Of a stretch of DNA of 64,000 bases, positions 9,980 through 63,811 are shown piece after piece; position 1 is the first letter of the stretch; each line of letters begins with the position of its first letter. The translations under genes and the position numbers were made by a program. A model generated the notes under the pieces. The model was not told the DNA's origin and ran no database searches. It was given only the letters and a program-made list of their open reading frames with translations. The DNA is from Spirochaetota bacterium (GTDB lineage Bacteria > Spirochaetota > UBA12135 > COTS27 > CBDBHE01): positions 224,001 to 288,000 of the forward strand of contig CBDBHE010000006.1 in NCBI GenBank assembly GCA_965205605.1. Direction: 5' to 3'.

Positions 9980-10441
9980 TTAATAATTATTTTCTGTTGA
10001 AATATTTTTTTGTTTTTTTTCAATGGCACTTTTAAGAGTATACCAAGGTAGTATAGCACATTTAACTCTTGAGGGGTATTGGCAAATACCAGAAAAAATA
10101 CAGAGCTTTTCTAAATGATTTTTTTCTTGATTTTCTTTTAATTCTCCTTTAATAAGAGCTTTAAAAATACTAAAGAGTTTATAAAAATCTTTAGTATTCA
10201 TTCCTTTGACTCTTTGGCTCATTAAAGAAGCCGATGCTTTTGAAATAGCGCAACCATTGGATTGATAAGCGATATTTTCAATTGAGTCTTCGTTTTTTAT
10301 TTTAAGAGTAATAAAAATGGTGTCACCACATAGAGGATTATTACCTTCTGCTTGGTGGGAGGGATTTTGGAGGAGACCGGTATTTCTTGGATTTTTATTA
10401 TGATCTAAAATCGTTTGTTGATAAAGTTCGTTTGAGTTCAT
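9980..10441 (-). CDS. sufU: SUF system sulfur-transfer/scaffold protein SufU
   Basis: NPLCGD, GCAISKASAS, RVKCA; directly after sufS. Confidence 0.93.
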   Translation of the reverse strand: MNSNELYQQTILDHNKNPRNTGLLQNPSHQAEGNNPLCGDTIFITLKIKNEDSIENIAYQSNGCAISKASASLMSQRVKGMNTKDFYKLFSIFKALIKGELKENQEKNHLEKLCIFSGICQYPSRVKCAILPWYTLKSAIEKKQKNISTENNY

Positions 10442-10447
10442 TTTATT

Positions 10448-11666
10448 TTATGAAAAAATTTTTTTAACTTTTTCAATCCCTTTAACTAAAATATCGATGT
10501 CTTCTTTTGTATTGTAAAGACTAAGAGAAGCCCTTGCAGTAGCGGGTATTTTATAGTACTTCATAATAGGTTGTGTGCAATGATGTCCTGTGCGAATAGC
10601 AATGCCTTCTTGATCTAAAACACTCCCAATGTCGTGAGGGTGGATGTCTTTTAAAGTAAAAGAAAATACAGAGCTTTTATTTTTAGCTTCACCGATTATT
10701 TCCAGATCTTTTATTTTTTTTAATTTTTTTTGGGTGTAGTCAAACAACTCTTTTTCACGAGATGAAATTGTTTCCCAAGAAAATTGTTGGATAAAGTCAA
10801 TGGCGGCTCCAAAACCGATCACTTGTGCAATAGGGGGAGTGCCTGCTTCAAATTTATAAGGGAGATCATTAAAAATAGTTTTTTCAAAATCAACACTTAG
10901 AATCATGTCTCCACCACCCTTGTAAGGAGGCATTTTGTCTAAAAAAGATTCCTTTGCGTATAAAACGCCCAGTCCATTAGGCCCAAACATTTTGTGAGCT
11001 GAAAAAACTAAAAAATCAATGTCTAATGCTTGTACATCAATGCTCGTATGTAACATTGCTTGAGCGGCATCAATCAAAACAGGAATGTTTTTTTCGTGAG
11101 CAATGTGAATCATTTTTTTTATAGGGTTAATCGTACCTAAGGAGTTAGAATAATAAACAACAGAAATAAGCTTTGTTTGATTAGAAATTTTTTTTTCAAA
11201 TGTTTCTAGATTAATGTCACCCATTTGGTTAATAGGAATGACATCAAGATTTGTTTCATTTTGTTTTTTAAGTAATTGCCAAGGAACAATATTAGAGTGA
11301 TGTTCCATATGAGTGATCAAAACAGCATCTCCTTTTTTTAAAAAACTTCTCCCATAACTTTGAGCAACTAAATTAATAGAATCAGTCGTACCACTAGTAA
11401 AGATAATTTCGTGGTGATGTTTGGCATTAATAAAGTCTTTTATTTTTTCTCTAGTTTTTTCATAAGCAATCAGTTGCTTGCTGTGAAAGTGTATGAACGC
11501 CTCGGTGAATGTTAGAAGTTTCTAATAAGTAATGCTTGGAAATAGCTTCAACAACAGGTTTTGGTTTGAGTGTTGTTGCTGCACTGTCTAAATAAGTAAG
11601 AGATTTTCCATTAATTTTTCTATTTAATATAGGAAAATATTGCTTAATATTTTCAATTGGGTTCAT
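10448..11666 (-). pseudogene. sufS: Cysteine desulfurase SufS with a 1-nt insertion near 11465-11470
   Basis: YLDSAATT..NIHRG in ORF 11460..11666. Removing one T from GAT-TGC-TTA-TGA gives YEKTREKIKDFINA..IIFTSGTT, in frame with EHHSN, FSAHK and RTGHHC. Confidence 0.88.
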
Positions 11667-11679
11667 GGTAAGATTTTTT

Positions 11680-12987
11680 TTAGTTTTTAAAAAAGTCTTT
11701 AATGCTTTTTTCCAATCGTTTTTTTATTTCTGGATTTTCATTTAAAAGGACAATTTCCTCAATAAATCCATAAGCTAATAGTTCAGTGGCGTCTTTTTTT
11801 GAAAGCCCTCTACTTTGGAGGTAAAAGACCTCTTCTAAGCTAGGTTGACCTAAAGTGGCCCCATGAGTGCATTTAACGTCATCGGCGTGAATTTCTAATT
11901 GAGGTCTTGCATTGACTTGAGCTTTTGGACTTAAAAGCAAATTTTTATTTAACTTATTAGCGTTTGTTTTTTGAGCATCTTTAAAAACAACGATTTTCCC
12001 TGTGAAGTTACAAACACACCGATCTTTTAAAATATTTCTATATTGCTGCATGCTTTCACAATCTCTAAATTGATGTTCGACGGTTGTTCTTTGGTCAAGG
12101 TTTTGAGTTTCTTTTCCAAGTGAAATTCCATTTAAAAAAGCTTTGGCATTTTGTTTTGAAAAAGTAACTTGCACATCACTGACTACATTTTTTCCTCCAT
12201 TTTGAAAGAAAAAACTATTAACTACACTTTCTTCTCCTAAATGAACTCGTAAAAAATTAACGTGATTAGTCGTTTTAGCTTCTAATTCTAAGTTTGTGTA
12301 GTGGACTTTTGCTTTATCTCTAATGATTAAATCTGTGGCATGGTTTGTAAAATGTTTTGAATTGGTGGAATAATAAGTTTCTATAACCTCACAACTGGCT
12401 TCTTGTTGTATATAAAATATATTTTTTTTAACAAGCATCATTTGATCTTCTAAATTTTCTGAAACATAAAGAAAATGAATTGGTTTTTCAAGTTTTGTTT
12501 TTTTAGCAATAGAAATCGCAACGCCTTCTTCAAAAAGAGCCTCATTAAGGCTTTCAAAAGGATCTTTGTTTTCAAAAAGAGAAGAGGAATTTTTAATAAA
12601 AAATAAATCTTCTTTAAAAGCATCTTTAATTGGAAATAATGTTAATTTTTCTTTTTCTAAAATTCTTGATTGGTTTTTTTGATAAATTCCATTGTAAAAG
12701 ACTAATAAATTTTCTTCTTTATGAGTGAGTGACTTGATGGCTTCATTAACCTTAGGGTTTTTTTCTTCATTTTCTTTACTTAAAGTTGTTTGTAATGTTT
12801 TATTTTCAATAGAAGCCACCAAATTGTTATAACGCCATAGTTCGCTTTTTTCTTTAGTAGGAAGATCTTGGTTTGAAAGGGCATCTAAAGCTTTTAATTT
12901 TTTTTCTTGAAACCATCTTGGGGTAGTAGAAGATAGGATGCCATTTTTTATTTTATTAATACCTTCTAATAATTCAATCATCATCAT
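11680..12987 (-). CDS. sufD: Fe-S cluster assembly protein SufD
   Basis: PQLEIHADDVKCTHGAT, FYLQSRG; operon context. Confidence 0.95.
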   Translation of the reverse strand: MMMIELLEGINKIKNGILSSTTPRWFQEKKLKALDALSNQDLPTKEKSELWRYNNLVASIENKTLQTTLSKENEEKNPKVNEAIKSLTHKEENLLVFYNGIYQKNQSRILEKEKLTLFPIKDAFKEDLFFIKNSSSLFENKDPFESLNEALFEEGVAISIAKKTKLEKPIHFLYVSENLEDQMMLVKKNIFYIQQEASCEVIETYYSTNSKHFTNHATDLIIRDKAKVHYTNLELEAKTTNHVNFLRVHLGEESVVNSFFFQNGGKNVVSDVQVTFSKQNAKAFLNGISLGKETQNLDQRTTVEHQFRDCESMQQYRNILKDRCVCNFTGKIVVFKDAQKTNANKLNKNLLLSPKAQVNARPQLEIHADDVKCTHGATLGQPSLEEVFYLQSRGLSKKDATELLAYGFIEEIVLLNENPEIKKRLEKSIKDFFKN

Positions 12988-13028
12988 TTTTCATGTTTCC
13001 TTTTTTTAAATACTTATAGTTGATATGA

Positions 13029-13778
13029 CTAAGCAATCCAATCATATCCTTTTTTTTCAACTTCAAGAGCAAGATTTTTATCTCCTGATTTAATAATTTT
13101 CCCATCTTGTAAGATATGAATGTAGTCGGGGACAACATAATTTAAAAGTCTTTGATAATGTGTAATTAAAACAATAACATTTTTAGATGACTTTAATTTA
13201 TTAATCCCCTCTGCTACAGTTCGAAGAGAATCAATATCAAGACCGGAGTCTGTTTCATCTAAAAAAGACACTTTTGGAGTTAGAATAGCCATTTGAAGAA
13301 TTTCATTTCTTTTTTTTTCTCCTCCAGAAAAATCAACATTAAGTTGTCTGTTAATAAAAGACTCGGGGATATTTAAGAGATTCATTTTTTCTTTAACAAA
13401 TTTCTCAAAATCAATTGGATCTAATTCTTCACTTCCTTGATGCTTACATATTTCATTAAAAGATTTTCTTAAAAACTCAATATTAGAAACGCCTGGAATT
13501 TCTATAGGGTATTGAAAACTCATAAAGATTCCTTCCTTAGCTCTCTCATCGACTTCCATTTCTAAAAGGTTTTTTTTTTTAAGATTGACTTCATAATCAA
13601 TAGAGCCTTCTGTTACTTCATAATCTGGATGCCCTGAAATAATTTTAGATAAAGTACTTTTCCCCGATCCATTGGGTCCCATAATAGCGTGAATTTCACC
13701 TTCTTTGACGTCTAAATTAATTCCTTTTAGAATAGGGTTTCCTTCAACAGTTGCATGTAAATTTTTAATCGTTAACAT
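13029..13778 (-). CDS. sufC: Fe-S cluster assembly ATPase SufC
   Basis: [35 protein letters not shown]. Confidence 0.97.
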
Positions 13779-13837
13779 AATAATTTTTCTCCTTATTTCT
13801 CTTATCTTTAAATACTTAAATGAATCAAATGTTTTTT

Positions 13838-15292
13838 TTAACCAACACTGCCTTCTAATTTCATTTCTAAAAGTCTCACTGCTTCCACTGAAAACTCTAA
13901 TGGTAGCTTATTAAAAACATCTTTACAAAATCCATTGATTAAAAGAGATACAGCCCCCTCGGCGTCGATACCTCTAGTTTGAAGATAATGAATTTGTTCA
14001 GCTGATATTTTAGAAGTTGAGGCTTCGTGTTCAATAACGGCCGTATTATTTTTACTTTCAATGTAAGGAAAAGTATTGGCTGTACACTGATCTCCAACCA
14101 ACATAGAATCACACTGAGTGTAGTTTCTAGCATGGTCTGCTTTGCTGCCAACGCGTACGAGTCCACGATAACAATTTTTTGATTTATCAGCTGAAATTCC
14201 TTTGGAAACAATGGTTGAACGAGTATTTTTTCCAATATGAATCATTTTAGTCCCTGTGTCAGCTTGCATTTTGTTATTGGTTAAAGCAACAGAATAAAAC
14301 TCTCCAATGGATTCATCCCCTTGAAGGATAACCGATGGGTATTTCCAAGTAATTGAAGAACCAGCTTCTACTTGAGTCCAAGAAATCTTGCTTTTTTTTC
14401 CAAGGCATTTTCCTCTTTTGGTTACAAAGTTGTAAATCCCACCGACCCCTTCTTCATTACCGGCATACCAGTTTTGGACGGTTGAATAATTAATCGTTGC
14501 ATTTTCTAAAGCAACAAGCTCAACAACAGCTGCGTGTAATTGATTTTCATCTCTCATAGGAGCGGTACACCCTTCTAGATAATTCACAAAACTGCCTTCT
14601 TCTGCAATAATGAGAGTCCTTTCAAATTGTCCTGTGCCAGCATCGTTTATTCTAAAATACGTCGACAAATCCAAAGGACATTTCACTCCTTTAGGGATAT
14701 AACAAAAAGATCCGTCTGAAAAAACAGCCGCATTTAAAGAAGCGTAAAAATTATCTGTATGAGGGACAACAGAACCAATATATTTTTTAATAAGATCAGG
14801 GTGCTTTTGAAGTGCTTCTGAAAAAGAACAAAAAATAATTCCAAAAGATTCTAATTTTTCTTGATGCGTCGTCCCAACAGAAACACTATCAAAAACAGCA
14901 TCCACAGCAACACCAGAAAGTCGCTTTTGCTCTGAAAGAGGAATCCCTAATTTTTCGAAGGTTTGTAATAACTTGGGGTCCACTTCATCCAAACTTTTTT
15001 TTAAAGCCTTTTCCTTAGGTGCAGAATAATAACGAATGTCTTGATAATCAATCGGTGGATAAGAAACATCTGCCCATATTGGTTGTTGCATTTTTTTCCA
15101 AGTATGAAACGCTTTTAAACGAAACTCTGTCATGAAACTAGGTTCTTTTTTGATGCTTGAAATCTTTTTAATCACTTCTTCATTAAGTCCTTTTTCAATT
15201 CTTTCTGTTTCAATTTCAGTATGAAATCCATATTTATACTGACGATTTTTAAACTCTTCGCTTGTTGTTATTTCTTCGCTTGTTTTTTCCAT
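13838..15292 (-). CDS. sufB: Fe-S cluster assembly protein SufB
   Basis: [38 protein letters not shown]-terminus. Confidence 0.97.
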
Positions 15293-15315
15293 CTTTTATT
15301 TCCTTGTAATGTTTT

Positions 15316-15765
15316 TTAATAAATTTCTTTTTTTGAAGAAGCGGTAATTAAATTAATAAGATCAATCTTTTTAAAAAATTCTTTAAAAAGATGATCTATT
15401 TCTTTCATAGGGTCAATGATATTACAGGTGGATTCCATAGAGCAGCTGGTTGTTTCAAGTTTTTTACTCTTTAGGCATTTTACAATCTCTAAAGGACCTA
15501 AAAGAGCTTCGTTTAAATCATAAAGGCTTAATTCTTTTAGATTATCTTCTAAAAAATAACCTCCATAAATTCCTTGCTCAGATTTTAAAATTTTTTTTTT
15601 CGCCATTTTTTGCATTACTTTTGCAATTGTCTCATAAGGTATCTGATAACTTTTAGCAATGTCTTTAGCTGTAATACGTTTGTTTTGTTTTGTTTCTTTT
15701 TGTTCTTTGTACATGTGCCTTAATGTAATTAAGGCATATTCTACAATCTTGTTAATTTTAACCAA
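15316..15765 (-). CDS. Rrf2-family transcriptional regulator heading the suf operon
   Basis: EYAL..L, SEQGIYGGY wHTH wing, three C-terminal Cys (VKC..SC....TC). Confidence 0.9.
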   Translation of the reverse strand: MVKINKIVEYALITLRHMYKEQKETKQNKRITAKDIAKSYQIPYETIAKVMQKMAKKKILKSEQGIYGGYFLEDNLKELSLYDLNEALLGPLEIVKCLKSKKLETTSCSMESTCNIIDPMKEIDHLFKEFFKKIDLINLITASSKKEIY

Positions 15766-15781
15766 GTACTCTCAAAAATTC

Positions 15782-15808
15782 AAAATACGATTTTTTATTT
15801 CGTATTTT
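15782..15808. promoter_or_regulatory. Palindromic operator, probably for the Rrf2 regulator
   Basis: AAAATACGA-N9-TCGTATTTT perfect 9-bp inverted repeat lying between the predicted promoter and the Rrf2 start codon. Confidence 0.6.
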
Positions 15809-15812
15809 AAAA

Positions 15813-15843
15813 ATAATACAATCTTTTTAAAAAAAAGTGTCAA
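15813..15843 (-). promoter_or_regulatory. Sigma-70-type promoter of the suf operon
   Basis: TTGACA-N19-TATTAT on the minus strand. The spacer is long and contains a T8 run. Confidence 0.4.
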
Positions 15844-15907
15844 ATTTTAGCTTTGTTTTTTTAAATTTTTTACTTTTTAATTCAAACCTTCGATTCATTG
15901 ATGACTT

Positions 15908-16591
15908 TTATACCAAGTAAGGAGATAAGGTTTTTAAAAACATAGAGGTTTTTTGGAAACTTTCAATGACCCCTTGGTTTAAAGTAATTATTTTCTGACA
16001 AAATTTTTTAAAATCTTTTGGATTTTGAGAAATATACAAAATAATAATTTTTTTTTTTTTTTGAGTTTCTTTTAAAAATGAAAAAATTTTTGTTTTTATT
16101 TTAATATTAATGCAATTTAAAGCTTCATCTAAAAGTAAAAGATTAAACTCAGAAAGTAACGCTCTTGCCAAAGCAACTCGTTGTTTTTCTCCATCAGAAA
16201 TTTCATTAGGCATTTGATTAAGAAAACTTTCTAAATTTAAATGAAACACCATTTCTTCCATTTCTTTTTTAGTAGAAATACTTTTTTTTAACCCGTACCT
16301 TATATTTTCTTCAATAGAAAGATGCGGAAACAAACTATTTTCTTGAGGAATATAAGCAATTTTTCTTTTTTGAATCATCAGGTTTGTTTGAGTTTTACTA
16401 TTAAAAAGGCAGTGATCTTTTATTTGGATCAATCCTTTTTTAGGGGTTTTAATTCCACACAATGTTTCAAATAAAGATGTTTTTCCTGCTCCATTAGGGC
16501 CCCATATCCCAATGGAAGAGGCTTTTGTTGTGAGATTTATATTGAGGATGAAATCTCTTAAAGGGAGTTTAAGATTTTTAATGATAATCAT
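15908..16591 (-). CDS. modC: Molybdate ABC transporter ATPase (degenerate motifs)
   Basis: GPNGAGKT, LFPHLSIEENI; follows modAB. Signature reads ISDGE and H-loop reads ISQ. Confidence 0.8.
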   Translation of the reverse strand: MIIIKNLKLPLRDFILNINLTTKASSIGIWGPNGAGKTSLFETLCGIKTPKKGLIQIKDHCLFNSKTQTNLMIQKRKIAYIPQENSLFPHLSIEENIRYGLKKSISTKKEMEEMVFHLNLESFLNQMPNEISDGEKQRVALARALLSEFNLLLLDEALNCINIKIKTKIFSFLKETQKKKKIIILYISQNPKDFKKFCQKIITLNQGVIESFQKTSMFLKTLSPYLV

Positions 16592-17249
16592 AATTTTTTT
16601 TTAAAAGCCACCTTTGAATCAAAGTACAAATAAAACCTAAAATAAAAGCCCAAAGTAACAGTCGATAAGCACTAGTGTCCTTCCCTATTAAAAAATGATG
16701 ATAAATTGATAAAGATAACGTAGATGTTTTTTCGGGAATATTGCCTGCTATCATCATTGTCGTACCAAACTCACCGATAGCTTTTACAAATGAAATAAGA
16801 AGTGCTGAGAGAAAATGTCTAAGGCAAAGAGGAAATGTAATGGTTAAAAAAACTTTTAAATTACTTGCCCCTAGTGTTTTTGCAATCATTTCTAGTTTTA
16901 AAGGAGTGTTTTCAAAGCCTGTTTTCATGATTTGAACAAAAAAAGGAAACGAAGTGATACTCATCGCAATTACAATTGCTTTCCAAGTAAAAATAATTTC
17001 TATATTATTTCTTGCTAATAATTTTCCTATAAAACCTTCTTGACTCAGTAAGAGTAAAAGCAAAAAACCTGTGGCCACAGGAGGAAAGACAATGGGTAAA
17101 TAAAAAAAAGATTCTATAACGCTTTTCCCAAACCAAGATTTTTTTGCTAGAATCCAACTAATGAAAACACCTCCAGGAATAATTAAAATAGTGCTTAAAA
17201 AAGCCATCTTAAAAGTAAATAAAATAATCTTTAGTTCTTCTTGATGCAT
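16578..17249 (-). CDS. modB: Molybdate ABC transporter permease
   Basis: LPIVFPPVATG, AKTLGA, GEFGTTMMIAGNIP. Confidence 0.92.
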   Translation of the reverse strand: MHQEELKIILFTFKMAFLSTILIIPGGVFISWILAKKSWFGKSVIESFFYLPIVFPPVATGFLLLLLLSQEGFIGKLLARNNIEIIFTWKAIVIAMSITSFPFFVQIMKTGFENTPLKLEMIAKTLGASNLKVFLTITFPLCLRHFLSALLISFVKAIGEFGTTMMIAGNIPEKTSTLSLSIYHHFLIGKDTSAYRLLLWAFILGFICTLIQRWLLKKNYDYH

Positions 17250-17252
17250 GTT

Positions 17253-17990
17253 TTAAGGAATTAAAAAGCCATATTTTTTAAAAATATTTTGACTTGTTTT
17301 TGAAACAATGAAATTTAAAAAAGCATGACTATTTTCATTGATGTTTTTTTTTTGGATAAGAGCTATAGAATAAGCAATTTCTACTTTGGGGTTATTTTTA
17401 AATTGATAAATTGTTTTTATGGATGGTTCTAAAAAAATATCGCTTTGATAACAAATCCCTACAGGAGTGTTTTTTAATTTTACAGCAAGGATTACATTTC
17501 TGGCATTTAAAGTAAGAATCATTTTTTTTTTTAAACTACCCCAAAGACTTAAATGATTTAATATTTTTTTGGTATAATCTCCACAAGGAGAAAAATGATA
17601 ATTAGCAATCGCTATTTTATTAATGAAAGCATCTAAAAGAAAAGCAGGACTTGTTTGTTGGCCCATCATATTTTTAATTGTGATAATAACGAGTTTGTTT
17701 TTTAAGATTTTTTTTTTAGTGTTTTTTATGATTCTGTTTTCAAGGATAGAAAACGGTTTTTCACCTGCAGAAATAAAAAGATCTACAGGAGCACCTGTTT
17801 TAATTTGTTTTGCTAAAATACCCGAAGCTTGAAAATGATAATTAATGGTAATTTGATTCGTTTTCTCGTAAATTTTTTTGACTTCCTCTAAGGCTTCTGT
17901 AAGGCTAATTGCAGCATAAATCAAGATTTTTTCTTTGGGGAAAATAGAAGAAAAAGTAAAAAAAATGATTAAAAATGTTTTTTGAAACAA
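17253..17990 (-). CDS. modA: Molybdate-binding periplasmic protein
   Basis: AAISL.EA, ASGILAKQI..GAP.DLFISA, NKLV, YQSD. Confidence 0.88.
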   Translation of the reverse strand: MFQKTFLIIFFTFSSIFPKEKILIYAAISLTEALEEVKKIYEKTNQITINYHFQASGILAKQIKTGAPVDLFISAGEKPFSILENRIIKNTKKKILKNKLVIITIKNMMGQQTSPAFLLDAFINKIAIANYHFSPCGDYTKKILNHLSLWGSLKKKMILTLNARNVILAVKLKNTPVGICYQSDIFLEPSIKTIYQFKNNPKVEIAYSIALIQKKNINENSHAFLNFIVSKTSQNIFKKYGFLIP

Positions 17991-56853: not shown

Positions 56854-57420
56854 ATGCATTTATTTCAAATTATTATTTTAATCGTTGCTATTTTATTTAC
56901 TAGTGTTTTTTCTTATCTTGCTTTTTTAGGTCTTTTTAAAAAAGTAGAAATCACAGAAAGTACAAAAGGGCCTTATTATATGGTGTATAAAAAAATGCAG
57001 GGTAGCTATAGTGGGATCGGTAATATTTTTTCGTATGTGAAAAAACATCTTGATGAAAAACAAATTTCTGTATTAGCTTATGTTGGAGTTTATTATGATG
57101 ATCCTAAAGAGGTGCCTAAAGATCAATTAAAAAGTGAAGGTGGATTTGCTATTTCAAAAAAAGTTTATGATCAATTACCTTTCCTTTCTAAAGATATTGA
57201 AAAAAAAATGATTCAAAAACAAGATTATATCACTGCAGAGTTTCCTTATAAAAATATGCTTTCTGTTTTTTTAAGTCTTGTCAAAGTTTATCCTAAAATG
57301 GGTAAGCATCACACTAATAAAGGTTATAAAAAACCAGAGTATTGTTTAGAAGTTACCCCTGATCCTAAAAAAAGCAAAACAGCCGTTAATACTCTTTTTT
57401 TGATGCAAATCGTTAAATAA
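56854..57420 (+). CDS. Membrane-anchored GyrI-like domain protein (TEX264-like)
   Basis: N-terminal TM; YK..QGSY, GVYYDDP..VP...L, AEFPYK..LSVFL...KVYP. Confidence 0.75.
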   Translation: MHLFQIIILIVAILFTSVFSYLAFLGLFKKVEITESTKGPYYMVYKKMQGSYSGIGNIFSYVKKHLDEKQISVLAYVGVYYDDPKEVPKDQLKSEGGFAISKKVYDQLPFLSKDIEKKMIQKQDYITAEFPYKNMLSVFLSLVKVYPKMGKHHTNKGYKKPEYCLEVTPDPKKSKTAVNTLFLMQIVK

Positions 57421-57458
57421 CTTTATTTAGCATTTTTCGTTTCGTTGTTTTATTTTTT

Positions 57459-59990
57459 TTAAAAAACAGCTTGGATAGCAATATGAAATTGGTTTTCATA
57501 CTCTAGCGAAAGATTAAAACCAATAATAGTCTGATAATCTACTAAACTAAAAGGAAAATTAATCAAAAAAGCACTTGAAAATTCAAGCCCTTTAAATGAA
57601 TGAGAAAGTCCTGATAAGATTTCCATATTTTCAAAAAAACCATACCGAGCGCCTATCCCTAGTTTAAAATTATGGAAATAAGAATATCCATAATTGTTGT
57701 AAAGAATGATATATCGATGATGATTTTTATAAAGAGTGTAATTAATATCAAATCCAAATTCGATGGGAAGGGGCTCATCAATAGATTGTATTTTTATAGG
57801 GAAGCCTAGATTTTTAATAAAAAACCCTGTCGCTAATGAATCTATTTCTTGAGTAGAACCTAGATAAATCAAGTCATTAAAATAAATTTCTGATTTTATT
57901 TTAGAAATGATTTGTGAATGCAGTAGCTTTTTTTTTTCTAGAGCGTTTTCTTTCTCTTTTTTAACAAGTTGTTTTTCTTTATTTTTATTTTCATTTAACT
58001 GTTCGGTAGCTTCTTTTGCAGAGCTTTGATTTTTTATGTAATGAGAAAGAACGTATTCTTTTTTTATTGCATTGATTTTGTCTTGATAAGATTTTTGAAT
58101 AAAAAAATCATCTGTTTTTTTTGTTATTAAAGCTTCTTGAAAAACCCAATTTAAAGATTTTTTCTGTACGTCGTGAATGTTTACGAAAAATTTTTCTAAC
58201 AATTGATTTTCTTCTTTTTTATAAGCTCTTTTATTAATTTCTTTTTCTTTTTTGGAAATAGAATTGAGGATATTGTATTGTTTTTTTAATTTTTTTTTTT
58301 TTAATTTTTTATAAAATTGTTTGGCGTAATTTTCAAGATTTTTAATCTTAACTTGTTTTTTTTTTTCAAAAGATTTTTGTTTATTTTCATAGGTAGTAGA
58401 AAATTCCTCTAATAAAAAATAATTTTTTTTTTTTTTTTGATAAAAACTAATAATATTTTTTAAATAAGCTTCTTGTAATGAATTTAAAAGCGAATTTTTT
58501 CTTATTTTATGTAGTGTTTTTTGAATATTTTGCGTCATTTCTTGTTCTTTTTTTTTTTGTTTTAGCATGAGTTGTTTAAGGAAGATTTTAATTTTTTGTC
58601 CTGGATTGATTTTTTTAAATAGTAAGTCTTTGTTTTCTTCTACAACAAGAGAATATACTAGACGACTTTTAAAATACTTTTTAATAATATTTTTAATGGT
58701 TTCTTTTTTTTTTACTTCGTGAAATAAAAAACCTTGCCTTGAAGCTCGATTAATTTTGATCTTTAAAAAATATATTTCCCAATCTTCAATGAAATTTTTT
58801 TGAGTGATTTTAATTTTTTTTTTAGAGTTTTGATATTTTTTAATGATTTTTTCCTCTGTTTGATTATTTTCTTTTTCTGAAAAACTATTTTGATACAATT
58901 GAAACAGAGTATTGATATTATTTTTTTCTTTATTAGTAATAGAGGAAAGGAGATTGCTTTTATGTTTTTCGATATATCTTTCATTGGTTACTATCATAGA
59001 AATAATTTTATAAATATATGCTTTGTATGTTTTTTCAATATTTTTTTGAAGATTTTGGGTTCTTTGAGAAAATTCTTCTTTAGCTTTTTTTGCATAGTTT
59101 GAAATATCTTCATCTTGGATTTCGTCATTTAGAGAAACCCTAGTGGAATAGATTTTTTTTCTTATTTGATAAATTTTTTCAAGATTATTTTGAGATTTTT
59201 TTAATTCTTGTTTTAAGGTATTAATTTTTTGTTTTGTTTCTTTTTGTAATTGAAGCTTTAGCTTTAAGATTTCATTTTCTTCATTGATCAATTTTCTTTG
59301 TGTTTGAGCTATTTCATAAATACTTTTGTTTTCTATTTTTGATTGTTGTTCTAAGAATTTTTGTTTGAGATCATCTTTTGTAATAAGCTTAGCTGGTTTC
59401 CCTAGATAAGGGACTTGAAAACGACTTGAAGCATTAAGATCAAAAAAGATAGTTTGAGAAGTGATGCCTTCAAATTGAGCTTGATAATAATTCACATTAA
59501 TAGCAGTATTAAATTTTTTTAAGAAAGTACTATTAAAAGATTGATTGGGATTATTGAAATTATTGATAGCAGAAACAATTTGATCATAGTCAACAATAAT
59601 TGGAGCTCCGACATATAAATCAGAAAAATTACCAAGAGAACCTTTCGCCTTTGATTCATTAAAAGATCTAATATTTCCAAAGTTAATAAAGTAGCCATAA
59701 GCTCCAAATAAAAAATAATCCAAAAAAGGTCTCGGCCATCCAAAAGAAAATCCTTGAGTACTTAAATTATTAAAAGGCAAGGTATTATAAAAAAAATTAA
59801 TTTCTGTTTTTTCTTTTAAAGAATATTGAGAGGTGTAATTTCGGTTAAAAAAACGATTGAAGCCTAAAATCTCATTTCCACCCCCTAATGAATTCGACAA
59901 AGGATCTTTTTCAAAAACTAGAAAATCAACAGTACTTTTTAAATAAGAAAGTGATAAAAAAAACAGAAAAATAATTTTGAATTTTATCAT
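57459..59990 (-). CDS. PorV/PorQ (UPF0164, FadL-superfamily) outer-membrane barrel with a ~520-aa coiled-coil insertion
   Basis: Signal peptide; FLVFEKDPLSNSLGG, INFGNIRSF, IFFDLN; after a K/E/Q-rich insert GFFIKNLG.PIK...EPLP..FGFDINY; terminal Phe. Confidence 0.65.
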   Translation of the reverse strand: MIKFKIIFLFFLSLSYLKSTVDFLVFEKDPLSNSLGGGNEILGFNRFFNRNYTSQYSLKEKTEINFFYNTLPFNNLSTQGFSFGWPRPFLDYFLFGAYGYFINFGNIRSFNESKAKGSLGNFSDLYVGAPIIVDYDQIVSAINNFNNPNQSFNSTFLKKFNTAINVNYYQAQFEGITSQTIFFDLNASSRFQVPYLGKPAKLITKDDLKQKFLEQQSKIENKSIYEIAQTQRKLINEENEILKLKLQLQKETKQKINTLKQELKKSQNNLEKIYQIRKKIYSTRVSLNDEIQDEDISNYAKKAKEEFSQRTQNLQKNIEKTYKAYIYKIISMIVTNERYIEKHKSNLLSSITNKEKNNINTLFQLYQNSFSEKENNQTEEKIIKKYQNSKKKIKITQKNFIEDWEIYFLKIKINRASRQGFLFHEVKKKETIKNIIKKYFKSRLVYSLVVEENKDLLFKKINPGQKIKIFLKQLMLKQKKKEQEMTQNIQKTLHKIRKNSLLNSLQEAYLKNIISFYQKKKKNYFLLEEFSTTYENKQKSFEKKKQVKIKNLENYAKQFYKKLKKKKLKKQYNILNSISKKEKEINKRAYKKEENQLLEKFFVNIHDVQKKSLNWVFQEALITKKTDDFFIQKSYQDKINAIKKEYVLSHYIKNQSSAKEATEQLNENKNKEKQLVKKEKENALEKKKLLHSQIISKIKSEIYFNDLIYLGSTQEIDSLATGFFIKNLGFPIKIQSIDEPLPIEFGFDINYTLYKNHHRYIILYNNYGYSYFHNFKLGIGARYGFFENMEILSGLSHSFKGLEFSSAFLINFPFSLVDYQTIIGFNLSLEYENQFHIAIQAVF

Positions 59991-62915
59991 TTTTTACACT
60001 TCGTTAAAATAATAGGAATTTATTTTTTGTAATTATTTTTTCCTTTTACAACAAGCAAGTAAAATCCAGAGAATGTGTATTCTCCATTTTTTTTTCTATC
60101 CCAAAACAAGCCTCTATTTTGAAAGAAAATTTCTTTGATTTTAAACCCTAAAATACTGTAAATATAAGCTTTGTAGTTATTAGCATTTTGGTTTTTTTTT
60201 AGATAAATTTTCATTATGGTTTTTTTACAAGTATCAATTTTGGTGTTAACAGCAACAATCTGTTCATTTTCACTAAATATGACACCTGGTTCTATAATAA
60301 AATCCTTAGTTTCTTGGAGACTGTATTCACTAGGCAAAGGGTAATAGTTTTTATTGGCTAATAAGATGGGATTTAGGGCTTTGTTTTGTTTATCTTTTGG
60401 AAAAATTAATTTAAATTGATTACCAATTTTTGCACTTTGGTCAATAGAAACCAAAGCATAAAGGATCGTTTTATTAGTCGTAATTGGTAATGAAGCATTA
60501 AAGGAAATATTAACTGTATTATTTGAAGTAAAAATCGCTGTACCTCCTTTGATAGGGATGTTATCTAAAGTAAACCCTTGTTGGTTATCTACTTCTTTAT
60601 ATAGTATTATAGAAGCAAATTGAGGTTTGTTTTGTTTATCTTTAATTTGAAACAACAGTTTTTCATCTTGATATAATTTGAAAAACCCTAAATTATCTGG
60701 CGTTGTGCTACCTTGATTGGTGAGCTTAAGAGATTGTAAATAAAAAACAGCATCATATCTTCTTTGGTTAAAATTAATTTAAAAGATTGGTTGTTAAAAG
60801 AGCCTTGCAAAACATTATTGGGATTATTATAAACGGCGTTAACTGTAATAGAATCATTATCAACACGATTTTGATTGGTTGAAATATTAGTCAATACTTC
60901 TTTGTTATCCACAACGCCTTCATTAGGGCCATTGCCTAAAATATCAGTAATATACTTGCTACTTAAATTGGCATCACTAGGATTAATTAACATGGTAAGC
61001 CAAAAACGACTTGTATTTTGAGCTTCTCCACTCAATGAAAAATTATTTTTATTGATAGCAATTGAGTTAGTTTTTGCTGATAATGGGCTAAAGAGAGTAA
61101 TATTAAAACCAGGCAAGTAAATGTCATCCGACAAAGAGAAATTTGAAATGTTATTTCCATCCCTATAAAGCTTAAATTTAAAATCAACATTATTTAAATT
61201 GCCATCAACAACAAACTTAATATTAGTGATGTATTGTGCTGGGCTTGATTTGGTGTTATCAGCGATAATGTCTACATAAGCCATTACATATTCATTATTT
61301 GTAGTAATGAATAAAGGAGGCACATTAAACCCAAATACTTCATTTGTAATTTTTAGCCCAAAATTTTTGCCAATCACACTCAAACCACTACTTACACCAT
61401 AAGCAATATATGATACTTTCTCATTCGTTCTAATAAGGCTAATTGGAGGAGATAACGTTAATCTAGATCCATTGGATAAAAGTGTATTGAAAGTAAAAGA
61501 CATTTTCTGATTCATCTAAAATTTTGACGTAACTAATATGCCCTATCTCTAAATTAACAGTTGAAAGACTATTTGTTATGACATCAATATGTGACAAATA
61601 ATTAGTTGTACTTTGAACATTTCCAGATAGACTTATTTTTAGATAGTCGTTATTAAAAGAAGATTGGCTTGTTTGAGGATCTTCGATATTATTGGAAATC
61701 AAGGTTACCTCTAGTAAAACAACATCAAGAGCAACCCCTTGTAGCATAATAGGGGTAGTAGACAACCCGTTATAAACATTGAAATCTTCCATCATCCATA
61801 TTAGCTGAAATGACTATCGTATCATCTTTAATGTTATAAATTTCATCGTCATTATTTTGATAAATTTTTAAATCTTCCAAATCATTTTTGTCAGCATTAT
61901 CCAAATTACTAATTTTAATGGCTGAAAGGTGATTTGTTGCATCTGGATTAGAGTTTGATAAACTAAAGCTAAAAACTAAACTATCAAAAGAACCTTGTTG
62001 AAGGTTATTAGATAAAAGGTATTTTGTAGAAAAATCAATTTGGTTTGAATCTACATTGGCTAAACGATCACTTATGTTTTTAATCACATCTAAATTAGCA
62101 ATCAATCCATTATTAATTCCTTTTGCTAAAATTTGCTCTATAAACAGTCTTACTTTTTTGGTAAAAATACCATCTTTTTTATTAATAATATTAAGCGTAA
62201 CCCAATAGCAAGTAGGATTTAGAAAATTAGTTGATTGATTTTTTTCTATCAATAAAATTGAAGAATAATCAATTAAAATAAGATTAGTAATCATTGTATT
62301 TGTAAAAGGATCAGAGATTAAAATAGCTACTCTAGAAATTTTTTCTCGATTATTATCATTAAAAGATTTTAAATAATAAGTAAACGTATAAGGAAATTTT
62401 CCTAATGAAATGAATGGAAGCAATACTACTAGCTGATAATAGTTTTCTAGATAGAGTGCCATTTCCAAGTAGTAATTGAGGGCATGTAGTAGCGTTAAGT
62501 CTTTTTTGGTATTTGGCATTTGGTTATATTGTTTTGTGTCAATGAAGATTTCAAAGTCTTCAGAAGTAAACTCTTTGGAAATCACTAAATTGAGATCAAT
62601 GCTAACTATTTCTCTACTAGCTTCTGGGTAATGAGTAGTTTAATCACCGAGATAAATCGTTAAAAAATCGCCATTTATTTTAATAGCCACTTCATTATCA
62701 TTAAATCGCCAAGTATTTGAAAAAACTATGGTTGAATTGATTATTTGTGTGGTTTCATTTTGAAAAGGCCTAATTGTCACATTATTAATAAGAGGCGTTG
62801 TGATATTTAACGAAGGGGGAGGAATAGAAAATGTACTTTGAGAATAGGTAAAATTAAAACAATTTAGAAAAACAACTGAGAAAAAATTGATATAATAAAA
62901 AAGCCTTTTAATCAA
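59987..62915 (-). pseudogene. Large secreted repeat protein (~970 aa reconstructed) with a T9SS-CTD/FlgD-Ig-like C-terminus, broken into five ORFs
   Basis: Signal peptide; in-frame TAA at 62640 and 60020; frameshifts near 61790, 61500 and 60755; C-terminal YIYSILG.KIK..FWD..NG....SGFYLLVVK; natural TGA 59987-59989 overlaps the next ATG. Confidence 0.7.
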
Positions 62916-63130
62916 ATATTAAATTTCCTAACTAGTGATTTGTTAATCTATAGTTTAGATAATTTTTTTTTAAGTTTTTTAAAAAAATTAATATTAATAA
63001 CTGTTTAAAAAAAGTTATTAGCTCTTTTTATAAAGTTAAGAGTTTGGTTTTTCGATATTTTAATTAAGTCTTGAATTTTAAAAATAAATTTTAACGATTT
63101 GTTTTTAAAATTGATGATTAATTAAATCAA

Positions 63131-63811
63131 ATGTTTTTTTTTAACAAAGTCTTTTTACTAATATTGCTTCTTTTATTCAATGCTTTTTGTAATGACAAAG
63201 CTTCTAAATTTCAGAAAAATAAAAATTCTTTTAAAAAAAATCACGAAAAAACTCGTTTAAATACGGACCATGTTTATCACTTAGTGAAAGCAGGTGATAC
63301 GTGGATTCATTTATCTATCAAGTATAAAGTTTCTATTAAAGAATTTTTAAAAATCAATCATGAAAAAAAATTAAAAATTGGAGTGCTAATCAAATTGCCT
63401 TTTAAAAAAAAAATTGCTCTAAAAAAACCTGAAACTACTTTTAAAAATCTCAACTTCATAATCCCTACTCAAAAAGGAAGCATTATTCAAAACTATGGGA
63501 AGAAAAAAGCAATTATGAATTACGGGATTTTTTTTAAATCAAAAAATAATCAAAATCAAGTCTATGCCAGTGAAAAAGGGATTATTAACTATGTTGGTTT
63601 CTTAAGAGGATATGGCAAGAGTCTTTTTTTAGTCCATTCAAATGGATGGGTTTCTGTTTATTCAGGATTTAAAAAATTATACAAACAAGCAGGAGAGAAA
63701 GTTTTTAAAGGAGAAATAATAGGCATTTATAACAAACAACTATTTTTTTCTATCTTTCAAAAAGGAGAGCCTTTTAATCCTAATAAAGTAATTCGGTTGG
63801 AAAAAAATTAA
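63131..63811 (+). CDS. LysM + degenerate M23 (NlpD/EnvC-like) protein
   Basis: YHLVKAGDTW..LS.KY.V LysM; M23-like VYASEKG..GYGK..H; the HxxxD and HxH zinc ligands are absent. Confidence 0.8.
   Translation: MFFFNKVFLLILLLLFNAFCNDKASKFQKNKNSFKKNHEKTRLNTDHVYHLVKAGDTWIHLSIKYKVSIKEFLKINHEKKLKIGVLIKLPFKKKIALKKPETTFKNLNFIIPTQKGSIIQNYGKKKAIMNYGIFFKSKNNQNQVYASEKGIINYVGFLRGYGKSLFLVHSNGWVSVYSGFKKLYKQAGEKVFKGEIIGIYNKQLFFSIFQKGEPFNPNKVIRLEKN

Follow-up and report, generated by a model that had tools for sequence, protein, structure and literature searches.

A 64,000-nucleotide stretch of DNA from a Spirochaetota bacterium (contig CBDBHE010000006.1 of assembly GCA_965205605.1, positions 224,001 to 288,000), hereafter the window, carries a gene whose product, P0001, is predicted to be an outer-membrane β-barrel of the PorV/PorQ type with a long helical module built into one of its periplasmic turns. 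P0001 belongs to a conserved spirochaete family in which a PorV-type barrel with a built-in periplasmic rod and wall-binding modules is encoded beside the gene for a giant surface protein, and this barrel-with-rod design probably ties the barrel to the cell wall. The interpretation that we favor, and hold to be somewhat probable, is that these proteins are carrier or anchor barrels for the sorting-domain cargo encoded next to them and are pinned to peptidoglycan by a LysM-bearing periplasmic rod, the module having partly decayed in the genome from which the window derives. The evidence is computational throughout. An earlier note on this DNA, made from the sequence alone, had drawn attention to the insert, and its proposals are considered below together with the results that bear on them.

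P0001 is encoded by a single uninterrupted 843-codon open reading frame (ORF) in DNA with a local G+C content of 23-29%. The genome (G000, with the window on its contig C6) is 1.69 Mb in size, consists of 8 contigs and is 91% complete. Barrel-like sequence ends with IFFDLNASSRF at residue 191 and resumes with SLATGFFIKNLG at residue 718, leaving 526 residues between; the span given in the earlier note, 57848-59408, corresponds to residues from about 195 to 714. The insert contains 20.9% K, 9.7% E, 8.4% Q and 8.7% N, and only 4 Gly and 3 Pro residues (1.3%). The barrel parts contain 7.7% Gly, 3.4% Pro and 14% Phe. This composition agrees, as does the model described next, with the earlier picture of barrel parts interrupted by a K/E/Q-rich helical segment nearly free of Gly and Pro.

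The AlphaFold2 model of P0001, based on an alignment of 40 sequences, has a predicted local distance difference test (pLDDT) score of 85.1 and a predicted template modeling (pTM) score of 0.74; it supersedes a run with 6 sequences in which the N half fell below a pLDDT of 50. DSSP assigns to this model six strands before the insert (63-71, 76-90, 93-110, 116-133, 160-173 and 176-191) and eight after it (719-729, 744-755, 759-770, 774-785, 789-798, 801-814, 817-828 and 834-842), making a total of 14. Comparison with solved structures using VIA-align gave Z scores of 29.0 for PorV chain 8gl6_F (286 residues aligned, root-mean-square deviation (rmsd) 4.7) and 28.5 for PorV chain 6h3i_F, with the PorV alignments covering 277-286 residues. 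FadL, TodX and related chains aligned with Z scores of 23.5-27.3 (rmsd 2.7-3.1 over 256-267 residues). All of these alignments span the insert, starting at about residue 13-29 and ending at residue 843. Foldseek alone found no match to the model at E≤0.001. The two halves were also compared with P0004, an insert-less spirochaete PorV/PorQ protein of 301 amino acids that scores 134 bits against a family cut-off of 90. With hhalign, the N halves of nine family members match P0004 with a probability of 90.8% (E 1.2e-6, P0001 residues 17-189 aligned to P0004 residues 21-171), and the C halves, as a family profile, with a probability of 96.7% (E 4.2e-10, residues 719-828 aligned to 180-286). The earlier note had argued that the halves make one PorV-like barrel and had suggested both structure prediction and this kind of alignment; the predicted structure confirms that residues 21-191 and 718-843 fold into one 14-stranded barrel of the PorV/FadL type.

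The fold is common to two groups of proteins, and the sequence matches of the family members bear on the choice between them. Among 28 aligned family members, NCBIfam models match at E≤0.01 as follows: PorV_fam in 15 (best E 4.9e-39), PorQ in 8 and PorV in 7. No member matches a FadL/Toluene_X family at this threshold, nor does P0001 at E≤1. The predicted structure has the 14-stranded FadL-fold barrel with an N-terminal plug found in PorV and PorQ, and the FadL/Toluene_X transporters resemble the model in fold without a corresponding match in sequence.

On which side of the membrane does the insert lie? Barrels assembled by the barrel assembly machinery (BAM) have a periplasmic C-terminus. Because eight strands follow the insert in the model and the chain, which ends in ...AVF, would have its C-terminus in the periplasm, the insert leaves and re-enters the barrel on the periplasmic side. 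The connections on the opposite face are short, at 2-14 residues. The turn that the insert replaces is 8 residues long in P0004 (residues 172-179) and about 12 in Flavobacterium johnsoniae PorV, where alignment of P0004 with PorV places it at about residues 190-201 (...YQSEEIAYSDFNGRW...); a short turn at this point had been expected from PorV-like proteins in the earlier note. In the legend of Extended Data Figure 6 of Lauber et al. 2024 (PMC10994853), residues 193-199 of F. johnsoniae PorV are termed the “PorV periplasmic loop” and contact SkpA, a correspondence that assumes that the numbering of the 402-residue PDB chain is that used in the paper. Strand parity, this loop mapping and the placement of the cargo domain on the opposite face in a predicted complex (see below) support the assignment of the insert to the periplasmic turn between strands 6 and 7, in keeping with the earlier proposal that the interrupted turn is periplasmic. 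On the same three observations we reject an extracellular insert.

A word-indexed homologue search with P0001 returned P0001 alone, because its lysine-rich words swamp such a search; it succeeded with P0002, a high-G+C relative. A profile of six family proteins, searched against 1.84 billion representatives, gave 23 matches with E<1e-30 and about 35 family members, the remaining matches being ordinary LysM proteins. One homologue of the same architecture, from a genome of the same order, carries the NCBI annotation “LysM peptidoglycan-binding domain-containing protein” (Spirochaetes bacterium), and another is on an NCBI record from a Spirochaetota bacterium. The layout of N half, insert and C half recurs in G004 (same order, 877 amino acids) and in G009 (same class, two copies). 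The insert occupies an identical alignment position, with a length of 488-659 amino acids, in 26 of the 28 aligned members, these being the ones that possess both barrel halves. In 301 sampled Spirochaetota genomes, both halves and the insert are present in at least nine among the matches listed (G000, G004, G009, G042, where the gene is in pieces, G064, G112, G126, G243 and G263); these carriers belong to families f1, f5, f6, f12 and f55. Six genomes of the same order from families f2 and f4 (75-89% complete) gave no match at E≤1e-5. Insert-less barrels of 300-400 amino acids occur in many of the 301 genomes. Both G009 copies, on contigs C346 and C654, are interrupted by runs of N; these masking or assembly gaps make the genes look split, although they are not really broken.

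The reality of the insert may also be judged from assembled contigs. Logan contigs from two runs of one sample cover window positions 57300-58270 and 58319-63000 with no differing letters, at depths of only about 5x and 3x, and this sample is possibly the source of the window assembly. Both insert junctions, at about 57839 and 59417, are bridged, and the 48 uncovered bases (58271-58318) are a repeat inside the insert. At position 57633, in the barrel C half, the contig of one run (depth 4.3) lacks one base and that of the other agrees with the window; the missing base is probably a low-depth assembly error. The earlier note had advised a search for homologues with an insert at the same site and an inspection of coverage, in case the gene were chimeric. 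A chimeric assembly is ruled out by the same-site insert in 26 family members and by contigs that bridge both junctions in the two runs.

Within the insert the residues most conserved among the 28 members are R277, L568 and Y590 (each 28/28), L563 and E594 (each 26) and K591 (23). Position 602 is L in 27 members and F in P0001. A C-terminal Phe is found in 25 of the 28. P0001 retains the invariant or nearly invariant residues D184, G197, R277, L568, Y590, E594, N727, G729, P742, Y751 and the terminal F.

In the model the insert consists of helices at 205-233/238-285 (A), 293-350/353-371 (B), 377-390, 397-419 (C'), 472-499 (D'), 504-575 (C), 580-654 (D) and 659-709 (E), mostly with pLDDT values of 85-96, the exception being 371-420. 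Between C' and D' lies a β-α-α-β unit, residues 421-470, here called LysM2, which aligns with the Pfam-positive LysM modules of relatives. Pfam LysM (PF01476) scores 23.4 bits in P0002 and 26.1 bits in P0003 against a cut-off of 20.9 and matches 12 of the 28 members at E≤0.01; against the PDB, the family profile matches the LysM of Kbp (7pvc_A) with E 1.4e-6. In P0001 itself, DSSP of the unit gives strands at 421-425 and 466-470 and helices at 432-439 and 444-452 (pLDDT 70-84). The D/E-T, N and G positions typical of LysM are kept as E430, T431, N453 and G464; in the 28 aligned members, of which 7-8 are gapped at the module, the T is present in 17, the N in 19 and the G in 17. By its scores (see below), LysM2 of P0001 is a degenerate LysM derivative, not a certified member of the family. 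Several relatives (P0005, P0007-9 and P0003) have a second LysM-like block upstream of LysM2, and the aligned part of P0001 (about 372-396) has no family match. LysM2 is present in 18 of the 28 members and absent in 10, which defines two subfamilies. Because these 10 lack LysM2, the rod and not the LysM is the constant feature of the family. Exactly 244 amino acids separate LysM2 from the barrel in 9 of the 18 LysM-bearing members, and in 17 of them the number falls within 239-264; on the N side the distance varies from 194 to 292.

The shape of the insert may be approached through the lengths of its helices. Helices D and E are predicted to form a tight antiparallel hairpin: the designed hairpin 5izs_A aligns to residues 617-696 of P0001 with an rmsd of 1.4 over 77 residues, and 5j2l_A and 3udc_A align as well. 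Since residue 709 is nine residues from strand 7, helix E runs towards the barrel; D therefore runs away from it and C, across a confident 4-residue turn, towards it. The helix lengths pair as 81 and 79 residues for A and B, 72 and 75 for C and D, and 23+28 against 51 for C'+D' and E. With a helix rise of 0.15 nm per residue, these matched lengths point to an up-and-down bundle roughly 11-12 nm long, from whose third segment LysM2 would bud, a few nm below the barrel, and in which the conserved C/D tip would adjoin the barrel's periplasmic mouth. A hydrophobic periodicity of 3.5 residues is patchy (232-294 and 505-553), and canonical coiled coils are not established. In view of the 580-654/659-709 hairpin we reject a single two-stranded arm of about 30 nm, similar to that of SMC proteins, with LysM at its tip; nor does the model contain one two-stranded stalk 30-40 nm in length. 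The earlier note had envisaged one long antiparallel coiled coil, and in view of the D/E hairpin and the fit of the lengths to a bundle it was probably wrong on the shape. Its interpretation of a barrel with an insert on the periplasmic side has held up and was incomplete, having missed both the LysM module and the pairing with the upstream gene to which we now turn.

A large gene on the same strand lies directly upstream of the barrel gene, abutting or overlapping it, in all ten loci examined (the window, G004, G009:C654, two in G263, two in G243, G126, G112 and G064; G009:C346, G263:C16:175-2586 and G042 were left out of this count). The upstream products range from a fragment of 221 amino acids to more than 2651, and their last ~100 residues can be aligned with each other. 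Thirteen such C-terminal domains (from the ten neighbors, two further proteins of locus L018 and the neighbor of P0004) were compared with Pfam at E≤0.1, yielding matches to CHU_C in 8, FlgD_ig in 7 and Por_Secre_tail in 7. Against the PDB, their profile finds first the C-terminal domain of PorU (6za2_A, E 1e-5) and then FlgD Ig-like domains, with weaker matches to PorZ (5m11_A, E 0.049) and to a translocon-bound cargo domain (8glk_D, E 0.09). The genetic association of PorV/PorQ-type barrels with type-IX-type sorting-domain proteins is thus found at every locus examined. The Pfam matches to Anthrax-tox_M, PPDK_N and DUF3318 on pieces of the upstream ORF are sub-threshold chance matches.

A complex was predicted for the G004 pair, consisting of the 873-residue barrel P0005 and the last 100 residues of its neighbor. 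This complex scored 0.72, compared with 0.00 for the best control. The mark that it passed is reached by 116 of 157 solved complexes and by 2 of 215 mismatched pairs, counts that are rough as custom alignments were used. At least 83% of the contacts recur between runs, and the pLDDT of the partner is 79 or higher. The contacts on P0005 (71-75, 101-121, 167-174, 756-765, 797-798 and 853-862, plus 19-26) correspond to the connections between strands 1-2, 3-4, 5-6, 7-8, 9-10 and 13-14, on the face opposite the insert. As a prediction, this shows likeness to PorV-sorting-domain pairs, not binding.

Is there a secretion system to which such pairs might belong? With the SprA model TIGR04189, ORFs of 2125-2296 amino acids in 4 of 5 carrier genomes match below the threshold and in part collinearly; none of 14 controls does. 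The G000 match scores 39.8 bits (E 4.1e-11), the cut-off being 200, and that in G004 falls in three collinear pieces. The G000 ORF, P0156 (2285 amino acids, L015:2459-9316 on the minus strand, equivalent to G000:C6:40459-47315), lies outside the window. Homologues of matching size, 2205-2289 amino acids, are present in G004 and G263, and the three full-length proteins align with one another. P0156 has no match in Pfam and no sequence match in the PDB, and a profile of the SprA-like ORFs finds no SprA chain in the PDB. P0156 may be a very divergent type-IX-like translocon. Matches to PorU in the carrier genomes are confined to its C-terminal domain, and the sortase core was not found. GldM was found in none of the five genomes and GldL gave one weak sub-threshold match, in G243; no control genome matches either, making this weak evidence. 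The earlier suggestion that the insert could energize the barrel finds nothing in its favor in these searches, weak as they are. Matches to GldK are generic and occur also in controls such as Bacillus subtilis.

On the interpretation that we favor, the periplasmic turn between strands 6 and 7 would be replaced by about 500-650 residues that form a rigid helical bundle, carrying one or two peptidoglycan-binding LysM modules in the LysM subfamily, P0001 included. First, the outer loops of the barrel would grasp the giant surface protein, the product of the gene immediately upstream, by its sorting domain. Second, the rod would hang about 11-12 nm under the barrel and present LysM to the sacculus. 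Third, non-covalent attachment to the cell wall would thereby keep the barrel and its cargo from free diffusion and, through the barrel, would pin the outer membrane as well.

Several observations weigh against this interpretation. Some concern P0001 itself, which has no Pfam or NCBIfam match at E≤1, PorV included, and whose model aligns nearly as well with FadL chains as with PorV (Z 27.3 versus 29.0). Its segment 410-480, taken alone, scores 14.4 bits with Pfam LysM (E 0.037, positions 1-42 of 43), below the cut-off given above; its best PDB match is the LysM of Kbp at E 0.23, and a genome-wide LysM scan does not pick it up. Among the relatives, the 10 members without LysM2 would have a rod with no such wall-binding module. 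The rod shape and the depth of LysM were deduced from helix bookkeeping, and the complex of barrel and sorting domain, predicted for a relative, may owe its score to solved PorV complexes such as 8GL6 that the model has memorized. The SprA-like match is sub-threshold and has no counterpart among PDB sequences, and neither the PorU core nor GldM nor, but for the weak G243 match, GldL was found in the searched genomes.

The remaining point concerns the upstream gene of the window, which is broken. The DNA at 60020-62915 is collinear with the 2154-residue G004 protein but spread over frames -1, -2, -3 and -2; the frame changes no fewer than three times, TAA interrupts it in frame twice, and the contigs of both runs have the same letters. 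One of these TAA codons falls within the sorting domain and cuts off its last strand. The sorting-domain profile finds no other clear copy in this genome, and thus the sole clear cargo gene is broken. Read from these lesions, the upstream gene is a pseudogene. Given this pseudogene and the degenerate LysM, the P0001 copy may keep only part of its role.

Other interpretations must be set against this one. The barrel might be a mere membrane anchor for a general strut between outer membrane and cell wall, a spirochaete analogue of OmpA, Pal or Lpp with no part in cargo handling. We consider this unlikely. It would account for the intact barrel gene beside a broken cargo gene, for the LysM modules of relatives and for the spacing of exactly 244 residues between LysM2 and the barrel in half of the LysM-bearing members, as expected of a ruler-like strut. 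It would not explain why a sorting-domain gene is paired with the barrel at all ten loci, why the sequence of the barrel puts it in the PorV/PorQ family of cargo binders, why an interface with the sorting domain is predicted, or why 10 of the 28 members lack LysM2.

Those same 10 members, in which the rod is conserved without LysM2, would be expected if the rod instead spanned the periplasm as a connector, linking the barrel with a machine in the inner membrane or the periplasm for energy or signaling, LysM being secondary. The invariant L568 and Y590 stand on either side of one helical hairpin tip, a pattern that a docking site would produce, and the homologous loop of F. johnsoniae PorV contacts periplasmic SkpA in the figure legend cited above (PMC10994853). 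Even so, a connector seems to us quite improbable: by helix bookkeeping the conserved tip would adjoin the barrel and not lie at the far end, the cargo gene is the only conserved partner beside the barrel gene, and the GldL and GldM searches, with their silent controls, gave only the result described above.

It is no more probable, in our estimation, that the cargo-barrel module has been lost in this genome and that the P0001 gene survives there as a decaying remnant without function. The lesions in the cargo gene, present in contigs of two runs, the sub-threshold LysM2 and the remnant of a first LysM would all fit such decay, as would the small genome (1.69 Mb compared with 4.5-5.4 Mb for module-bearing relatives). 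Against this, an uninterrupted frame of 843 codons persists in DNA of such low G+C content, the nearly invariant residues of the family are kept and the fold is predicted with confidence. Finally, we give equally little credence to a FadL-type uptake channel for hydrophobic compounds whose helical rod would pass substrate on, for in spite of the FadL and TodX alignments and the same role having been proposed for FadL-like proteins of Treponema pallidum with helical C-terminal extensions, PorV_fam and not FadL/Toluene_X is matched by the family, and both the sorting-domain synteny and the LysM would be left unexplained.

The proposed carrier or anchor may be compared with several known systems. 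In the titles and abstract openings that we searched, with subscription journals and supplements outside the scope, we found no PorV-type barrel into which a LysM or helical module is inserted, in line with the statement in the earlier note that its author knew of no characterized protein with this architecture. A first comparison is with PorV itself (also called LptO; 6H3I and 8GL6 chain F; NF033709/NF033710; PF19572) of F. johnsoniae and Porphyromonas gingivalis. During type IX secretion, PorV and PorQ barrels bind cargo through their outer loops, by its C-terminal sorting domain, and carry or hold it at the surface. The likeness extends to the 14-stranded FadL-fold barrel with its N-terminal plug, to family membership by sequence through relatives, and to the predicted position of the sorting domain on the outer loops, as in the solved complexes described in the consulted part of PMC10994853. 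There are three differences. The PorV turn has about 12 residues, whereas P0001 has 526 with helices and a LysM unit; published accounts make PorV a carrier that the translocon releases, and the barrel of P0001 would be pinned; and searches of the spirochaete carrier genomes yielded neither a PorU sortase core nor a GldLM motor.

The attachment complex of P. gingivalis, with its PorQ-PorZ and PorV-PorU pairs, offers a second parallel. PorU and PorZ keep their C-terminal domains, and there too a PorV/PorQ-type barrel holds a surface protein by an uncleaved C-terminal domain. PorQ and PorV have no periplasmic module, and the cargo of the spirochaete barrels is a giant protein and not a sortase or sortase partner. 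P0001 would also act much as OmpA, Pal and Lpp do, since each combines a membrane anchor with an element that binds peptidoglycan at a fixed distance; Lpp, a helical rod, determines how far outer membrane and wall lie apart. There is no homology with these proteins, which differ from P0001 in barrel fold, in wall-binding domain (LysM as opposed to OmpA_C or a covalent link) and in domain order.

In PorP-PorE-PG1035 and SprF-SprB, as described in the consulted portions of PMC9143113 and PMC7192894, a barrel is likewise combined with a surface protein retained through its C-terminal domain and with a periplasmic element that binds peptidoglycan. There the cargo is of type B, the barrel is of the PorP/SprF type and the wall binder is a separate lipoprotein, PorE, with an OmpA_C-like domain, which PMC7192894 reports bound to a peptidoglycan fragment. 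In P0001, by contrast, the wall-binding LysM sits on a helical rod fused inside a PorV/PorQ-type barrel. Among spirochaetes, T. pallidum TP0548, TP0859 and TP0865 are 14-stranded FadL/PorV-like barrels with an α-helical, presumptively periplasmic part (PMC8407342), and the FadL-like proteins of T. pallidum are termed “PorV/FadL-like” in the text available from PMC13749626. They differ from P0001 in that the helical part is a C-terminal extension with tetratricopeptide repeat (TPR) motifs and not a turn insertion; the consulted portion of PMC8407342 reports no LysM, and the role proposed there is nutrient uptake. Finally, the ESM Atlas holds no model of P0001, but feature matches of 0.93 and 0.90 lead to clusters that pair a PorV/PorQ or PorP-type annotation with LysM in Eiseniibacteriota and Elusimicrobiota, which we regard as leads only. 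If these clusters are real, the tying of barrels to the wall would be recurrent, and P0001 would be the spirochaete form of it, set apart by its insertion site and its helical rod.

To our knowledge, spirochaetes have no Braun lipoprotein. If correct, our interpretation would offer a candidate answer to the question of how spirochaetes, with flagella lying in the periplasm, link their surface structures and outer membrane across it to the sacculus. It would also provide a natural case of a folded domain tolerated in a periplasmic turn of a BAM-assembled barrel, which would be useful for barrel engineering. In the parts of the literature consulted, PorV-type barrels are described as mobile carriers and the secretion system is regarded as specific to Bacteroidota and the Fibrobacteres-Chlorobi-Bacteroidetes (FCB) group, against which background the module would be evidence for type-IX-like cargo handling in Spirochaetota. 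A bolder proposal, which we consider doubtful, is that some Spirochaetota run a pared-down type-IX-like display system, with a divergent SprA-sized translocon, PorV-type barrels and giant cargo and with no recognizable GldLM or PorU. In such a system the carrier barrel would be a fixed post, the conserved hairpin tip of its ruler-like rod docked at the periplasmic mouth of the barrel and its LysM on peptidoglycan, so that giant adhesins would gain a mechanical link to the sacculus across the outer membrane. This way of anchoring the surface proteins of diderms to the wall might have arisen repeatedly in uncultivated phyla.

The features of P0001 and of the adjoining cargo gene are collected in Table 1. 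The putative signal peptide was assigned by eye from the sequence.

Table 1. Features of the barrel gene and its upstream neighbor, in window coordinates.
Feature	Position	Strand	Basis
Whole P0001 gene, predicted PorV/PorQ-type outer-membrane barrel with inserted helical-LysM module	57459..59990	-	843 amino acids plus stop; ORF translation, AlphaFold2 model
Putative Sec-type signal peptide, residues 1-20 (MIKFKIIFLFFLSLSYLKST...)	59931..59990	-	sequence reading; predicted helix 5-15, low pLDDT
Plug region at the N-terminus (21-60) plus barrel strands 1-6, residues 21-191	59418..59930	-	DSSP of model; hhalign
Residues 192-717: 526-residue insert, periplasmic turn 3 between strands 6 and 7	57840..59417	-	alignment, model, composition
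Degenerate LysM module (LysM2), residues 421-470, predicted β-α-α-β	58581..58730	-	alignment to Pfam-positive LysM of relatives
Putative remnant of first LysM module of relatives, residues about 372-396	58803..58877	-	alignment; pLDDT 47-57
Most conserved insert stretch, residues 563-602, flanking turn 576-579	58185..58304	-	column counts, 28 members
Residues 718-843: barrel strands 7-14, end ...IQAVF	57462..57839	-	DSSP; hhalign
Broken upstream presumed cargo gene	60020..62915	-	tblastn with G004 protein; junction translations; contigs of two runs
C-terminal type-IX-like/FlgD-Ig-like sorting domain of broken cargo gene	59999..60271	-	profile match E 2.2e-16, positions 3-101 of 101

Three further observations concern the surroundings of these genes. 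Divergent from the broken cargo gene, at window positions 63131-63811 on the plus strand, a 226-residue secreted protein with LysM and an M23 peptidase domain is encoded (Peptidase_M23, E 1.9e-12; LIC_10271-family cell wall hydrolase, E 9.4e-16). From these matches it would be a second cell-wall-directed gene beside the barrel module. At locus L018 (G243:C167), the cargo-barrel pair is followed at 9992-17663 on the plus strand by genes for two more sorting-domain proteins, of 702 and 672 amino acids, and for an 1176-residue protein with a barrel-like C-terminus; together these form a larger surface-protein cluster. Lastly, ORFs of 1334-1419 amino acids whose match to the profile is confined to its C-terminal barrel half (positions about 688-814) are present in G053:C7, G064:C1, G110:C8, G112:C102, G119:C108, G140:C203 and G147:C3, which suggests another large PorV-like architecture in family f12 and others.

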